NCBI GenBank assembly: GCA_043806315.1 | Contig: JAZDHF010000017.1 | Span: 1-58,021, forward strand | Direction: 5' to 3' | Length of the DNA: 58,021 bases | Origin: Planctomycetota bacterium | GTDB taxonomy: Bacteria > Planctomycetota > Phycisphaerae > UBA1845 | Shown: positions 18,933 to 49,245 of the stretch, piece after piece | How the letters are laid out: the number at the start of each line of letters is the position of its first letter | Position numbering within the stretch: the first letter of the stretch is position 1 | Made by a program: the position numbers and the translations under genes | The notes under the pieces: generated by a model | Seen by the model: the letters and a program-made list of their open reading frames with translations, nothing else | The model's database searches: none | What the model was told of the DNA's origin: nothing

Positions 18933-19019
18933 GGAGAGGTGCCCGAGCGGCTGATGGGGCTGGTTTCGAAAACCAGTGTGCGGGAAACTGTACCGGGGGT
19001 TCGAATCCCCCCCTCTCCG
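18933..19019 (+). tRNA. tRNA-Ser(CGA)
   Basis: GGAGAGG acceptor; anticodon arm CTGGT-TTCGAAA-ACCAG; long variable arm; GGTTCGAATCC T-arm; G discriminator; CCA not encoded. Confidence 0.95.
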
Positions 19020-43437: not shown

Positions 43438-44058
43438 TTAACGCAATCGCACGCCGTCAGAGCCGTGGACGGAACTTGTCCCGGCGCGCTGAGAGACAGT
43501 CGCTCCCACAAGAGCAATGCGTTTTTCAACGGGCGGTTGGCTTTCCCCGCTGACGAGTTTCCGGGTGTTGCTTTCGAGCTTCTTCACGTCGCCGGAGCCC
43601 AAAGCGACGTCCACGACGACGCCCGCGCGATCGATCCACAAGGCCGTGGGAATGATCCCGTCCGGGACGCCGTACTGCTCGATGGTTTTCCCGCCATCGA
43701 GGAGTACCCGTTGGTTGAGCTTGTTTCGCTCGACGTACTGCTTGAGGATTTCCTTGTCCTCGTCCCAGGCGTTGACGGCCAGGACCACCAATCCGTCCTT
43801 CTTGTACTGCTCGGCGATGCGACTGACGTGCGGAGCCTCCGCACGGCAGGGAGCTCAGCCATCGGCGAAGAAGGCCACCAGAACGGGTTTGCCGCGTTGA
43901 TCGCTGAGGCGGACCTTCGCCCCATCGAGGGCGGTTAACCGAAAGTCCGGCGCGGGCTTGTCCTTCACCTGGGCGACGAACCGACGTTCGGCCGCCCCCG
44001 CGCACCCGGCCAGACCCAGGACGGTCAAAACCGCCGCGGCATACCAAACTCCTCGCAT
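43438..44058 (-). CDS. Putative selenoprotein: TlpA/ResA/peroxiredoxin-like thioredoxin-fold lipoprotein with UxxC
   Basis: ORFs 43855-44058 and 43438-43791 share one frame, separated only by TGA at 43855-43857: LAGC lipobox...APDFRLTALDG...VLVAFFADG-U-APCRAEAP...GIIPTALWIDRAG. Confidence 0.85.
43823..43849 (-). promoter_or_regulatory. Bacterial SECIS-like hairpin
   Basis: Minus strand CTG-C-CGTGCGGA-GGC-TCCGCACG-T-CAG beginning 5 nt after the UGA; G-initiated apical loop 17 nt from the UGA. Confidence 0.7.
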
Positions 44059-44384: not shown

Positions 44385-44782
44385 TATCCGCAGCGCCACG
44401 ACTGGGCCGGGTTGCGAACCTTCGTGTGCGTGGAGAGCCAGCGAACGATCGACGGCCAAACCTCGACTGATCGCCGGTACTCCATCAGCGACCTGAGCGG
44501 CGTGGACGCCCGGACCATGCTGGAATACGTTCGCGGACACTGGGGCATCGAAAATCAACTCCACTGGTCGCTGGACGTGACCTTCCGGGAGGACACCCTC
44601 CGCAACCGCGTCGGACACTCCGCTGAAAACTTCTCGCGGATTCGCCGCCTGGCCCTGAATCTCCTGCGACGGGATCAGACCTGTAGGGCGGGCCTCAAGG
44701 GAAAACGCCTTCAGGCGTGCCTGAAGGAGGACTACTTACTCAGGATACTCGCCCAGGGGGTGATTTAGATGCGATTGCCCTG
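44385..44782 (+). mobile_element. ISAs1-family transposase remnant (C-terminal) with right terminal IR
   Basis: DWAGL...RYSISDL...VRGHWGIENQLHWSLDVTFRED...RRLALNLL; ends in GATGCGATTGCCCTG (44768-44782). The N-terminal part is missing. Confidence 0.85.
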
Positions 44783-44886: not shown

Positions 44887-46149
44887 ATGACGGACGGGAA
44901 GCAGATCGGCTTCCGGAAGCTGACGGCAGCCGGAACTCTCAAAAGACTGCTGGCCGAGCACTTCTATGAGTTGGACCGGGCGGCGAAGGCAGGCGCTCCG
45001 AAAGTAGCTTGGTGTACGAGCGTCGGCCCGGCCGAGTTGCTGCGGGCACTGGGTTTCCTCGTGTATTTCCCCGAGAACCACGGGGCGATGCTCGGCGCCT
45101 CGCGGGTGGCAACGGAAACGATCCCCGCCGCCAACGCCATCGGCTACTCGCCCGAGGTCTGCTCATACATGACCAGCGACATCGGCGCGTTTCTGCAGAA
45201 GCGCACGCCGCTTTCCGACGCCTACAAGGGCATTGAGGGCATTCCCAGGCCCGACGTGCTGGTCTACAACACGAACCAATGCCGGGAGGTTCAGGATTGG
45301 CTTGCTTGGTACGGTCGGCATTGGGACAGGCCCGTGCTCGGCATCGAGTGCTACCGCGGGGTCGGCAATGTGACCGACGTGCACGTGGCGGGCATCGCGG
45401 GCCAGCTCCGGGCGCTGGTACCCCCGCTGGAGAAGATCGCCGGCCGGAAGCTTGACCCGGCGCAGTTGCGCGAGGCGGTGCGGCTCTCGCGAGAATGCTC
45501 CGACCTGTGGAAAGAGGTGCTGGAGACGGCGGCGGCGAGGCCTTCCCCGCTGACTTTCTTCGACAGCACTGTACACATGGCCCCGGCCGTGGTCATGCGC
45601 GGCACCCAGGCGGCCGTCGACTATTACCGGGAACTGCTGCCGGAGCTGAAGCAGCGGATCTCCGACGGCGTGGCGGCGGTCGAAGGCGAGCGTTTCCGGC
45701 TCTATTGGGAAGGCATGCCGATCTGGGGTCGCTTGCGGGATCTGGCCACCATGCTGCTCGAACTGCGCACCTGCGTCGTGGCCAGCACCTACGCGAACTC
45801 CTGGATCTTTGCCGCCCTTGACCCGGACGACCCCTTCGACTCCATGGCCCGGGCGTACACCGAGTTGTTCATCGTGCGGTCCGACCCCTATAAGGAGGAG
45901 TATCTCGCGGAGATGATCGATCGGTTTGCCGTGGACGGCATCGTGTTCCACGATTCCAAGACGTGCCCCAACAACACGAACTGCCGGCACGGCATGCCGC
46001 AACGAATCTTCGAGCATCTGAGCGTGCCCTCGATCACCGTGGCCGGCGACCTGAACGATCTGCGTTGCTACTCGGATGAGCAGGCGCGCACGCAAATTGA
46101 GGCCTTTGTCGAGCAGCTCGGGGAAGCGACGTCGCCGCGCCGGCCTTAG
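44887..46149 (+). CDS. 2-hydroxyacyl-CoA dehydratase subunit (HgdAB/FldBC/BcrBC family)
   Basis: PAELLRALG..YFPENHGA, GYSPEVCSY, NQC, LYWEGMPIW, VDGIVFHDSKTC, IEAFVE. Confidence 0.9.
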   Translation: MTDGKQIGFRKLTAAGTLKRLLAEHFYELDRAAKAGAPKVAWCTSVGPAELLRALGFLVYFPENHGAMLGASRVATETIPAANAIGYSPEVCSYMTSDIGAFLQKRTPLSDAYKGIEGIPRPDVLVYNTNQCREVQDWLAWYGRHWDRPVLGIECYRGVGNVTDVHVAGIAGQLRALVPPLEKIAGRKLDPAQLREAVRLSRECSDLWKEVLETAAARPSPLTFFDSTVHMAPAVVMRGTQAAVDYYRELLPELKQRISDGVAAVEGERFRLYWEGMPIWGRLRDLATMLLELRTCVVASTYANSWIFAALDPDDPFDSMARAYTELFIVRSDPYKEEYLAEMIDRFAVDGIVFHDSKTCPNNTNCRHGMPQRIFEHLSVPSITVAGDLNDLRCYSDEQARTQIEAFVEQLGEATSPRRP

Positions 46150-46329
46150 AGCGTGTGTGCGTCGGGTGGCACTGGCAGCTTGCTGCCGGCGGGATGCGTC
46201 CCACAGCGGACAACGCGGGCGGACAACCCGCCCGTGGCATTCAGCACGTCAGGTTGTGGAGCTACTCAGCTATGCTGTTCGCGGAGGGGGCAGCTTGATG
46301 GCAGGAGCAGTCCGGCAGAGGATCGGGAA

Positions 46330-47103
46330 ATGACGCAGCGTTGGTCAGTGGGTGTCGACGTCGGCGCCTCGGCCACGAAAGCGGTGTTGCTGAACGCCGA
46401 GGGGCGGGTATGCGCCCGGGCGGTGCGGAAGTCCGGAGCGGACTTCGCCGCGGCTGCCGATGCCTGCCTCGCGGAAGTCCTGGCGGCCGCCGGCATCGAC
46501 GCGGCAGTGATCGGTCGTGCGCTGGCTACCGGTTACGGCCGGCGCAACGTGCGCTTCGCGCACGCCATCGCGACCGAAATCACCTGCCACGCCCACGGCT
46601 GCCACGCGAACCTGCCGAAGGCCATGACGATTGTTGACATCGGCGGCCAGGACAACAAGGTCATAGTGATCGACGACAGCGGCGCGCGCCGCCATTTCAA
46701 GATGAATCGCAAGTGCGCCGCGGGTACGGGAGCTTTTCTGGAGGAGATCGCGGCTCACCTGGACATCCCGTTGGCGACGCTGAACCCGTTGGCCAGGCAG
46801 GCGACCGGCACCCTCCAATTAGGCTCGTTCTGCACGGTCTTCGCCAAGACGGAACTCCTGAAGCTGCTCGCCCAGGGCGCGCCGCTGCCTGAGATCGTCA
46901 AGGCCGCCTTCCGTTCTGTGGTGAAGCGCATTCTGGAAATGGACCCGTTGAGCGGGCAGGTTGTGATGACCGGCGGCGTCGTGGCCCACAATCCGGTCAT
47001 CGTGGAATTGCTTTCTGAGGCACTGGGTCGGGCGGTGCTTGTCCCGGACCATCCCCAATACACCGGCGCACTGGGGGCGGCCCTGCTCGCCGCAGACGCC
47101 TAA
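46330..47103 (+). CDS. Acyl-CoA dehydratase activase (HgdC/BadFG family ASKHA ATPase)
   Basis: GVDVGASATK, TGYGR, EITCHA, DIGGQDNK, MNRKCAAGTGAFLE, CTVFA, TGGVAHN, GALGAAL. Confidence 0.93.
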   Translation: MTQRWSVGVDVGASATKAVLLNAEGRVCARAVRKSGADFAAAADACLAEVLAAAGIDAAVIGRALATGYGRRNVRFAHAIATEITCHAHGCHANLPKAMTIVDIGGQDNKVIVIDDSGARRHFKMNRKCAAGTGAFLEEIAAHLDIPLATLNPLARQATGTLQLGSFCTVFAKTELLKLLAQGAPLPEIVKAAFRSVVKRILEMDPLSGQVVMTGGVVAHNPVIVELLSEALGRAVLVPDHPQYTGALGAALLAADA

Positions 47104-47163
47104 TTCCCGCGGCCGCGAAGATGCCCCTTGGCGCGCGGCGGTGGAACCGCTGGAGACTGGATC

Positions 47164-49245
47164 ATGACGCTCGAGGCCTTGTTCTCACCCCGTGCCGTAG
47201 CGGTCATCGGCGCTTCCAACCGGGAGCTGACGATCGGCTACCGCATCATCCAGAACCTGCTGGATTTCGGCTATCGCGGGTCGATCTACCCGATCAACCC
47301 GAAAGGCGGCGAAATCCGCGGGCTACCGGCCTATACCTCCATCCTCGACGCGCCCGAGCCCGTGGACGTCGCGCACCTCGTCATCAAGAACACGCTCGTC
47401 CCGGCCTGTGTCGAGGACTGCGCCCGCAAGGGGGTGCGGGCAGTGATCGTCAATACGGCCGGCTTTCGCGAGATCGGGCCGGAAGGCGCCCGGCTCGAGG
47501 ACGAACTGGCCGGCGTCGCCATGAGGACAGGCATCCGAGTGTTCGGCCCCAATTGCCAGGGCATCATCAACACCGACCCGGCTGTGCGCGCCTACTGTAA
47601 CTTCACCTTCACCAGGCCGGTGCCCGGGCACGTCTCCATCGTTGCCCAGAGCGGCGGCGTGGGTGAGGTGATTCATCAGCGCATCACCGAACTGGGCGTC
47701 GGCGTCCGCCAGTACGCCAGCAACGGCAACGCCTGCGACGTGTCCATCCCGGAGATTATTCAGCACTATGGTCAGGACGCCGAGACGACGGTCATCGTCG
47801 TGCACATTGAGAGCCTGGCGGACCCCCATGCCTTCCTGGAGGTGACCCGCGACGTCGCCCGCCGCAAGCCGATCCTGGCCATGAGTGTCGGCCGCACGGC
47901 CGAGGGCGCCAAAGCCGTCTCGTCGCACACCGGCAAGATGATGAAGCTGCATCGGGCCGTCGATCTGGTATTCGAGAAGGCCGGCGTCGTCGCGTTGCAC
48001 AACATCGAGGATCTCTGTCAGTCGGCCATCGGCTTCGCTGCGCAACCTGTGCCGAGAGGTAACCGCGTGGGGATGATCACCAACACGGGCGGGCCGGCCA
48101 TCATCGCCACCGACGAGTTGATTGAGGGCGGGATGGTCATGCCGCCCCTGGCGAAGCAGACCGAGACGATCCTGCGTGACAAGCTTCATCCTGAAGCATC
48201 CATAAGCAACCCGGTGGACGTGCTGGCGACCGCCGGCCCTGAGCACTTCGCGGCCGCCATCGACGCCATGCTACAAGACGACGGCATCGATGCGATCTAT
48301 CTGAACTTCATCACGCCGTTCTTTGCGGACACCTTGGGCATCGCGCGAGAGATTGCCGCCGCTAACGGCCGCTCCGCCAAGACGATCGTCGCCACCGTGA
48401 TGACGCAGAAGCAGATCTGGGCCGAGACCTTGCAACTCATCCGTGTCGCCGGCGTACCGACCTACGATATGCCTGAAACCGGCGCTCGCGTCCTGGCGGC
48501 GATGGGACGCTATGCGACGTTCCGGCAGCGACCCCGGCCGCGTCCCCTTTCATTCCCCAACGTAGCCACCGACATGGCCCGCGCCCTGCTGAAGTCGGCC
48601 CGGCAAGCCGGCCGAAAGTCGCTGAGCGCCGGCGATGGCTTCGAGCTCCTGACCTGTTACGGGATTCCCGTGGCGCGCTACGCTTGGGCCGGCAGCGTTG
48701 ACGAATGCGTCGCCTGCGGTGACGAGCTCGGCTACCCAGTGGTGCTCAAGGTCGATGCAGAGTCCTTAGTCCATAAGACGGACGCCGGGGCCGTGGTCCT
48801 GGACATCCGCGACCGCGAGGCGTTGCACGCCCGGGCGAAAGACCTTGCCGCCCGTTTCGCCGAAACCTCGCCCCGGTTCCTCGTGCAGGAACAACTGCGC
48901 GGAGGCCGGGAGGTCATCGTCGGCGCCCAGGCGGTGGCTGGCTTGGGACATGTAGTCATGTTCGGTCTGGGCGGCATCTTCGTCGAAGTGCTGAAGGACG
49001 TGAGCTTCCAGCTCACCTCGGTGAGCGGACCGGAAGCGCGCGAGATGATCGAGTCGGTCCGGGCACACGCGTTGCTCGCGGGTGTGCGCGGTCAGCCGGG
49101 CGTCGATGTGCGGGCCCTGGCGGAGATCATCCAGCGCGTCTCACACATGCTGACTGACAACCCCGATATCCAGGAACTGGACATCAATCCGGTCTTCGCC
49201 CTGGCGCGCGGCGCGGTAGCGGCCGACGTGCGGGTGACGCTCTGA
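47164..49245 (+). CDS. ADP-forming acetate/acyl-CoA ligase (fused alpha-beta)
   Basis: PRAVAVIGAS, FGPNCQG, QSGG, SSHTG (phospho-His), NPVD, C-terminal ATP-grasp (YPVVLK, HKTDAGAV, ELDINP). Confidence 0.92.
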   Translation: MTLEALFSPRAVAVIGASNRELTIGYRIIQNLLDFGYRGSIYPINPKGGEIRGLPAYTSILDAPEPVDVAHLVIKNTLVPACVEDCARKGVRAVIVNTAGFREIGPEGARLEDELAGVAMRTGIRVFGPNCQGIINTDPAVRAYCNFTFTRPVPGHVSIVAQSGGVGEVIHQRITELGVGVRQYASNGNACDVSIPEIIQHYGQDAETTVIVVHIESLADPHAFLEVTRDVARRKPILAMSVGRTAEGAKAVSSHTGKMMKLHRAVDLVFEKAGVVALHNIEDLCQSAIGFAAQPVPRGNRVGMITNTGGPAIIATDELIEGGMVMPPLAKQTETILRDKLHPEASISNPVDVLATAGPEHFAAAIDAMLQDDGIDAIYLNFITPFFADTLGIAREIAAANGRSAKTIVATVMTQKQIWAETLQLIRVAGVPTYDMPETGARVLAAMGRYATFRQRPRPRPLSFPNVATDMARALLKSARQAGRKSLSAGDGFELLTCYGIPVARYAWAGSVDECVACGDELGYPVVLKVDAESLVHKTDAGAVVLDIRDREALHARAKDLAARFAETSPRFLVQEQLRGGREVIVGAQAVAGLGHVVMFGLGGIFVEVLKDVSFQLTSVSGPEAREMIESVRAHALLAGVRGQPGVDVRALAEIIQRVSHMLTDNPDIQELDINPVFALARGAVAADVRVTL

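Follow-up and report, generated by a model that had tools for sequence, protein, structure and literature searches.

We report a probable selenoprotein gene in a 58,021-nucleotide stretch of DNA from a planctomycete of the Phycisphaerae (assembly GCA_043806315.1, contig JAZDHF010000017.1), referred to below as the window. The gene, on the minus strand at 44058..43438, most likely encodes a genuine selenoprotein—an exported, lipid-anchored thiol-disulfide oxidoreductase of the ResA/TlpA/CcmG class in which selenocysteine (Sec, U) at residue 68 would replace the attacking cysteine. It is the decoding of codon 68 as Sec, judged from sequence comparison, that we hold with the greatest confidence. 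An earlier note, made from the letters of the window, had proposed a selenoprotein here, and the proposal is supported by conservation of the TGA, covariation in a hairpin, frozen synonymous sites, and the presence of Sec machinery in the genome.

A conserved TGA in the redox motif

With TGA translated as U, the minus strand from 44058 to 43438 forms one frame of 206 codons ended by a TAA stop (43440..43438), reading MRGVWYAAAVLTVLGLAGC...KPVLVAFFADG-U-APCRAEAPH..., with MRGVWYAAAVLTVLGLAGC as the N-terminus. Its sole in-frame TGA is codon 68 (43857..43855), which occupies position 1 of the redox motif U68-A69-P70-C71 (43846..43857). Read with table 11, the frame is broken into a 67-aa open reading frame (ORF; 43855..44058) and a 117-aa ORF (43438..43791). 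Translation thus bears out the coordinates 43438-44058, the placing of an in-frame TGA at the first CxxC position, and the open frame downstream, all as previously described, and adds the strand, which had been left unstated and is minus.

Relatives carry the same codon. Six-frame searches covered 40 relatives and then 101 genomes of the family; among the family matches listed, 47 of 57 carry one internal TGA. In the 41 orthologous loci that we re-read in frame (L023-L063; 35-100% identity to the query), the codon that opens the xxC motif is TGA in 36 cases and TGC in the other five (L034, L039, L041, L051, and L063). Comparison with homologues, which the earlier note had suggested as a check, therefore shows that this assembly is not alone in having the TGA. 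The UGA aligns with the Cys of homologues at the redox site, and the public protein collection has full-length homologues only as Cys forms (for example, P0002, 73% identical, and P0003, 66% identical). Sec forms are represented there only as fragments—P0020 ends ...AFFAFG before the TGA position, and P0022 begins EAPHL—just as had been anticipated of automatic annotation, which was expected to split the gene. Contig pieces from two DNA and two RNA-library sequencing runs, at a likeness of at least 85%, also bridge 43855-43857; these are contigs of relatives, and the 40 differences listed, of 85 in total, all spare the TGA. Finally, among the 36 Sec-form genes, 14 use TGA as their ordinary stop codon; it has therefore not been reassigned genome-wide.

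A hairpin conserved in the Sec forms

Within codons R72-A-E-A-P-H77-V lies a hairpin of the selenocysteine insertion sequence (SECIS) type, CGUGCGGA-GGC-UCCGCACG (43845..43827, minus strand), with 8 bp and a 3-nt loop that begins with G. The stem begins 9 nt after the UGA and the loop 17 nt after it; the 8 bp and the G-first loop had been correctly described before, and the accompanying distance of 17 nt applies to the loop, not to the stem. Constraints on bacterial SECIS (bSECIS) elements, as set out in the relevant part of a 2026 review (PMC13188914), are a loop of 3-9 nt, a stem of 4-16 bp, G in the first two loop positions, a UGA-to-loop distance of 16-37 nt, and a minimum free energy of at most -7.5 kcal/mol. 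The hairpin falls within these published values, with a loop of 3 nt, a stem of 7-8 bp, 17 nt to the loop, and -9.9 kcal/mol for the 17-nt core.

Of the 36 Sec forms, 35 carry that 7-bp core, GUGCGGA-GGC-UCCGCAC, at an unchanged distance from the UGA; all five Cys forms lack it. Three Cys forms (L034, L051, and L063) keep the peptide CR[AV]EAPH by means of other synonymous codons (for example, CGC GCC GAA GCC CCC CAC), and so provide a natural control that parts RNA constraint from protein constraint. Across the 36 sequences of alignment A2, 98.4% of 252 cells are paired; shifting the 3' partner by 1-3 columns lowers this share to 29-69%. At the fourth stem pair, 28 sequences have C-G, six have A-U, and two have U-A, and none leaves it unpaired; covariation is confined to this one pair, with three pairs constant and three whose sole variation is a loss of pairing in one or two sequences. 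Synonymous sites are similarly frozen: among the Sec forms, the share of the top codon is 0.97, 1.00, 0.97, 0.97, 0.78, and 0.94 for the six hairpin codons (mean 0.94), compared with a mean of 0.53 and a maximum of 0.76 for 49 other columns of conserved amino acid. The codons kept in the hairpin are CGT and GCT, unlike the G+C-rich choices of the Cys forms.

We also searched the 279 genomes of the order with a pattern uniting the TGA, xPC, and the hairpin (TGANNNCCNTGYNNTGNGGAGNNTCCNCAY), which occurs exactly once in each of 65 genomes; a backwards-read control pattern had 0 occurrences in the same 279. Hits fell in the family of the window's genome (f1; 46 of 100 genomes, plus the window's own) and in f2 (15/49), f5 (2/5), and f11 (1/2), with none in f6 (0/72), f7 (0/35), or f3 (0/7). 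By hand count, all 65 rows have complementary letters at the two free positions of the stem (C/G 52, A/T 7, T/A 6), and the loops read GGC in 55, GTC in 5, GGT in 3, and GTT in 2. These counts are a lower bound, given that G043, with U-G-A-C and the same hairpin, escaped the pattern. The uniformity of the hairpin is such that it could act as a lineage-specific SECIS search pattern.

Sec machinery in the genome and family

A search for Sec machinery had been proposed as a check, and selC, selA, selB, and selD are all present in the window's genome (G000), each above its curated cut-off. The tRNA-Sec lies on contig C91 (68.7 bits; ARAGORN type SeC, anticodon tca), selA (574.8 bits) adjoins selB (357.2 bits), and selD (381 bits; L018, G000:C99:5833-6753) has an in-frame TGA of its own (...SCAG-U-AGK...). 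Within the family, selA was found in 96 of 101 genomes, including the Cys-form genomes G044, G074, G049, G021, G083, G085, and G086; its retention there means that the Cys forms are not explained by loss of the pathway. A sub-threshold match to the tRNA-Sec model within the window itself (18933-19018, plus strand; 43 bits vs a cut-off of 47) is probably an ordinary long-arm tRNA.

Protein family, fold, and export signal

Sequence profiles and a structural model place the protein in the ResA/TlpA class of thioredoxin-fold oxidoreductases, as a member of the superfamily that falls outside every named subfamily. Its best Pfam match is AhpC-TSA (PF00578; 4.8e-23, 81.9 bits vs a gathering threshold of 26), a family that also covers ResA-like redoxins, followed by Redoxin (3.2e-19) and a weak match to GSHPx. 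Among NCBIfam models, ResA (NF002854) ranks first with 83.2 bits (cut-off 170), ahead of the TlpA equivalog (NF047696; 45.4 vs 230) and DsbE (TIGR00385; 38.6 vs 123). A profile built from 23 orthologues (alignment A3) and searched against the PDB matched ResA of Bacillus (4nmu, 2.1e-33; 1st9, 1e-29), a thioredoxin-family protein of Geobacter (3kcm, 1.7e-31), pneumococcal Etrx (2yp6, 3.1e-28), TlpA (1jfu, 5.7e-18), and CcmG/DsbE (~1e-16). The AlphaFold2 model (mean predicted local distance difference test score, pLDDT, 89.5) has a thioredoxin fold with ResA-type insertions, in which the redox motif opens the first long helix (residues 69-84); its best Foldseek match is ResA 4nmu_D, with a template modelling score normalised to the target, TM(target), of 0.93 and a root-mean-square deviation (rmsd) of 1.3 A.

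All 23 rows of alignment A3 agree at column 68, P70, and C71. They also agree at Pro137 (43648..43650), which directly precedes strand 138-142 of the model and whose position we take to be that of the thioredoxin-fold cis-proline. Among the 36 Sec forms, the position just ahead of U is occupied by G in 28, S in three, T in two, W in two, and R in one, and all five Cys forms have G there; the G in place of the usual W, earlier remarked upon as unusual, is therefore real but is a family trait that has nothing to do with Sec.

The N-terminus (44002..44058) has the form of a signal peptide with a lipobox, L16-A17-G18-C19 (44013..44002), in which a motif of the type [LVI][ASTVI][GAS]C follows a hydrophobic signal; Cys19 is accordingly predicted to be lipid-modified and to begin the mature protein, with export likewise read from the motif. 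G18 and C19 are invariant in alignment A3, partly through selection, as its rows were picked among loci with recognisable starts. Across all 41 orthologous loci, a strict lipobox regular expression matches 32; by eye, six of the nine misses have x-[AGS]-G-C, and three (L037, L057, and L039) have none. Elsewhere, the genome encodes both LspA (106.8 bits) and Lgt (166.6 bits), and a DsbD with three domains (DsbD_N, DsbD_TM, and Thioredoxin_7).

At the other end of the protein is an extension of 33 residues (174-206; 43441..43539) found in this genome only. Relatives lack this tail: codon 174 is CAA here versus a TAA stop in the nearest orthologues, L024 and L025. The model is of low confidence here, with a pLDDT of 61-75.

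Proposed mechanism and alternative explanations

In the mechanism that we propose, SelB carrying Sec-tRNA(Sec) would bind the hairpin at 43845..43827 and bring about insertion of Sec at codon 68 instead of termination. The precursor would then be exported, lipidated and cleaved at Cys19 by Lgt and LspA, as its motif suggests. At the periplasmic face, the U68 selenolate may attack the disulfide of a client, or another oxidised form of sulfur, with C71 resolving the mixed selenenylsulfide and the genome's DsbD putatively re-reducing the oxidised U68-C71 pair. Candidate clients include apocytochrome c, Sco-type copper chaperones, and envelope methionine sulfoxide reductases. By analogy with related reductases, we moderately favour this DsbD-coupled reductase mechanism.

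Several observations weigh against the selenoprotein reading or parts of it. The best sequencing run holds a fraction of 0.20 of the sampled words of the stretch and none reaches half, so that the runs gave no read-level support for this exact assembly; the RNA-library contigs that bridge the TGA do not show transcription, and we draw from them no conclusion on expression or habitat. Folding of 71 nt around the TGA gives z = -0.26, with 68 of 200 shuffles folding equally well—in a genome of 62.7% G+C, a lone hairpin is within chance, and it is the comparison with relatives that puts it beyond chance. CRAEAPH is kept in Cys forms too, so only synonymous sites inform on the RNA, and the loop of the selD hairpin is CAU, so the G-first rule is not uniform in this genome. 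Four of the 47 pattern-positive family genomes (G004, G007, G091, and G094) have no selA match at E <= 1e-30. Three of these four have a tRNA-Sec above cut-off, and the selB match of G004 spans model positions 2-345 only; in G091 (83% complete), neither tRNA-Sec nor selB is above cut-off. A missing selA could be an assembly gap, as selA adjoins selB in the window's genome.

Other points against concern the protein's role. The NCBIfam models for ResA, TlpA, and WAxxUGC all score under their cut-offs. Across 19 loci (the window and 18 orthologues, ~12 kb each, by crude ORF clustering), no conserved gene neighbourhood emerged, and synteny thus offers no functional clue: loosely linked large proteins recur in six loci (subtilase, glucose/sorbosone-dehydrogenase-like, and without Pfam family, in the three scanned) and a 792-aa glycosyltransferase-like protein lies near three, and one further cluster merely reflected an ORF antisense to the redoxin gene. 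ResB lies on contig C259, and the redoxin paralogues on C143, C168, C55, and C197 stand beside neither ResB nor DsbD. With no shared neighbourhood and no adjacency to ResB or DsbD, we can only guess from homology at the client and at which way the reaction runs. A link to cytochrome c maturation was considered and could not be assigned, as neither the gene nor its weak paralogues adjoin ResB or DsbD.

We weighed three other explanations of the gene. Were the TGA a true stop or an assembly error, at most a 67-residue fragment would be made from a pseudogene or split gene. The two ORFs under table 11 and the public fragments P0020 and P0022 would fit, as would the fragment resembling an insertion sequence (IS) 350 bp upstream and the lost normal stop and acquired tail of this copy. 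Such decay is nonetheless hard to square with a TGA that 36 of 41 loci share, even at protein identities as low as 39%, and that is followed by 100-odd codons conserved as protein, or with a pattern present once per genome in 65 of 279 genomes; together with the covariation, the frozen synonymous sites, and the Sec machinery, these observations leave a pseudogene with almost no probability. Read-through that does not solely insert Sec is a subtler alternative, whether by near-cognate Cys or Trp or through a ratio of full-length to truncated protein that depends on selenium. The inserted residue is predicted here from sequence, and close relatives such as P0002 and P0003 do use Cys, in a tree where the two states are interleaved. 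A strongly selected SECIS-type hairpin at the right distance, a complete Sec pathway, and other Sec candidates in the genome at known Sec positions nevertheless make mixed read-through very unlikely.

The third alternative accepts a selenoprotein but assigns it the work of an envelope peroxidase or hydroperoxide scavenger, like a peroxiredoxin or glutathione peroxidase (GPx), in place of protein-disulfide reduction. Sec in redoxins is often tied to peroxide chemistry. Consistent with such a role, AhpC-TSA is the best Pfam match and GSHPx a weak one, JGI calls some Cys homologues 'peroxiredoxin', and the structural matches from rank 34 onwards include Bcp peroxiredoxins. The site itself is of another kind, however: it is UxxC, preceded by P58-V-L-V-A-F-F-A-D-G with Ala at -3 and no Thr, and not the PxxxTxxC/U given as the catalytic motif of peroxiredoxins in the 2026 review (the part cited above, PMC13188914). 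The best matches in both sequence and structure are ResA, DsbE, Etrx, and TlpA, and the segment C-x-x-C-x-x-E-x-P is common with ResA in the alignment. We therefore regard a peroxidase as improbable and retain the thiol-disulfide oxidoreductase reading.

Repeated exchange of Sec and Cys

We built a tree of 61 sequences (36 Sec and 25 Cys), to which the added public proteins contribute a bias towards Cys because gene callers cut Sec forms short. The tree is poorly resolved, with 30 of 56 inner branches open; 17 changes of label are needed on it, of which the starred branches force two, and the clustering of the Sec/Cys label barely exceeds that of shuffles (65 of 500 as low). Sec and Cys forms are interleaved, and supported sister pairs join the two states (L046/P0012, support 99; L048/P0004, support 94). 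Both states also occur within a genus: in g38, G043 has Sec and G044 Cys, and in g50, G073 and G075 have Sec and G074 Cys. The sequences thus point to repeated exchange between Sec and Cys, for which we claim neither a direction nor a count.

One member of these sister pairs, L046 (G072:C43), is the lone Sec form with a degraded hairpin, GCGCGGAAGCACCGCAC, which pairs GCGG with CCGC over 4 bp around a 5-nt loop (-6.0 kcal/mol). With a Cys form (P0012) as its sister, L046 may be a copy changing state, or else a user of another SECIS shape.

A broader interpretation, which we put forward only tentatively and consider doubtful in its full extent, is that these genes make up an undescribed, order-wide Phycisphaerae clade of lipid-anchored periplasmic ResA-like Sec reductases, with a minimal, near-invariant SECIS and repeated Sec/Cys swaps. 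The element would have a 7-bp stem, a G-first 3-nt loop, and a 10-nt spacer, all inside the catalytic C-x-x-C-R-A-E-A-P-H codons. If this is true, swaps among close relatives, all with the Sec machinery retained, would point to ecological tuning, not to trait loss, with an envelope redox enzyme tuned by selenium supply or oxidative load in sediments. The clade would also rank among the few lipoprotein selenoenzymes and offer a natural system for what Sec gives a CxxC reductase. In any case, this one small enzyme comes in at least 36 natural variants with Sec and several with Cys, a number of them sisters, all in genomes that keep the Sec pathway, and is thus useful for asking why a thiol-disulfide reductase should use Sec over Cys.

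Relation to known systems

UxxC selenoproteins of this fold are already known as established predictions, and the Phycisphaerae gene is a new example. Table 1 of Zhang et al. 2006 (PMC1794560) lists a 'Prx-like thiol:disulfide oxidoreductase' (8 sequences) and a 'Thiol:disulfide interchange protein' (3 sequences), and TlpA-like and Prx-like UxxC selenoproteins appear in Table 1 of the 2026 review (PMC13188914). The gene is thus 'hidden', as the earlier note had it, in the fair sense that annotation misses it; its kind is already in the literature. Selenoproteins have been reported from other Planctomycetes in the text of PMC4807772, and the Phycisphaerae clade was not met in the selenoprotein literature searched, of which S9 Table (PMC4807772) and Table S2/BSepDB (PMC13326102) may hold it. 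Compared by description only, the listed proteins share with ours a thioredoxin/AhpC-TSA fold, Sec as the first residue of UxxC, and Cys homologues elsewhere, but come mainly from Deltaproteobacteria and marine metagenomes, whereas ours is from the Phycisphaerae and has a lipobox. Knowledge of Sec decoding and of the thioredoxin-like fold is unchanged by the redoxin gene.

Among proteins of solved structure, ResA is the closest relative (4nmu, 1st9, and 1su9; Foldseek TM(target) 0.89-0.93, rmsd 1.3-1.8), being similarly extracytoplasmic and membrane-tethered, with C-x-x-C-x-x-E-x-P. It differs in having Cys, with W before the motif, where the present protein has Sec, and our gene is not beside resB or resC. 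ResA is anchored by a transmembrane helix and not by a lipobox. TlpA of Bradyrhizobium (1jfu and 4txo) and CcmG/DsbE are periplasmic reductants of this superfamily, supplied with electrons by DsbD or CcdA, but are more distant from the redoxin than ResA is. Etrx1 and Etrx2 of Streptococcus pneumoniae (4hqs, 2yp6, and 4hqz) resemble it as lipoprotein ResA-like redoxins (profile E 3e-28 to 1e-22), described in their PDB titles as 'exposed lipoprotein thioredoxin', but have Cys instead of Sec and a Gram-positive host. The client of Etrx is methionine sulfoxide reductase. Finally, the second-best NCBIfam match (4.1e-13) is a curated family of ResA-like selenoproteins, NF041054, 'ResA-like WAxxUGC motif-containing protein'. 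The match scores 49.3 against a cut-off of 300, to a model of 354 positions with a UGC motif, whereas the redoxin has the motif F-F-A-D-G-U-A-P-C and is ~170 residues long in most members.

Other candidate selenoproteins and genomic surroundings

A genome-wide screen for TGA codons with the frame open on both sides and a hairpin yielded 523 candidates, reduced to 21 by a filter on the difference in G+C between third and second codon positions (GC3-GC2). The filter also lost the redoxin and selD, and the screen is accordingly neither sensitive nor specific. Of six candidates scanned with Pfam, two, L167 (FloA) and L168 (PilM), proved to be ordinary gene ends. An FdhA-like molybdopterin oxidoreductase with a twin-arginine signal (L166, G000:C290:10384-13131) reads ...ARN-U-HSATV, a DsbA-like protein with a signal peptide (L165, G000:C269:12758-13837) has U-P-F-C, and a CMD/AhpD-like protein (L163, G000:C5:16807-17388) has C-H-Y-U; these three and SelD (L018) are probable further selenoproteins. 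Much like the redoxin gene, those for the FdhA-like and DsbA-like proteins carry, 12-13 nt after the UGA, hairpins of 6-7 bp whose 3-nt loops begin with G (GUU and GUC). The DsbA-like UPFC gene lies ~2 kb upstream of lgt on the same contig (G000:C269:12758-17092; L165 and L180). A more speculative case is L164 (G000:C241:16743-18635; TGA at C241:17181-17183), a 631-codon read-through frame without Pfam family, which has C-P-G-U-G-G-T-G, then C-E-K-C-G-Q-G-S-G, and then a 7-8-bp hairpin, and which might conceivably contain a DnaJ-type CxxCxGxG zinc-finger pair with Sec at one position. As gene callers miss Sec forms, the selenoproteome of this sediment-dwelling Phycisphaerae lineage is under-counted.

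Around the redoxin gene, the window holds a 114-aa ORF without Pfam family, GpsA, a nucleotidyltransferase, the IS fragment, a 2-hydroxyacyl-CoA dehydratase with its activator, and an acyl-CoA synthetase, with no redox partner among these neighbours. The IS fragment is a 118-aa ORF at 44412-44768 (plus strand) with a weak match to a DDE transposase C-terminus (PF01609; E 1.8e-4, below cut-off), and is probably what remains of an IS, ~350 bp upstream of where the selenoprotein gene starts. Beyond it, 44887-49245 (plus strand) encodes HGD-D (the 2-hydroxyacyl-CoA dehydratase D-component), a BcrAD/BadFG-type activator ATPase, and an ADP-forming acyl-CoA synthetase-like protein (CoA_binding, Succ_CoA_lig, and ATP-grasp_5), a cluster that belongs to anaerobic metabolism of the radical-dehydratase type.

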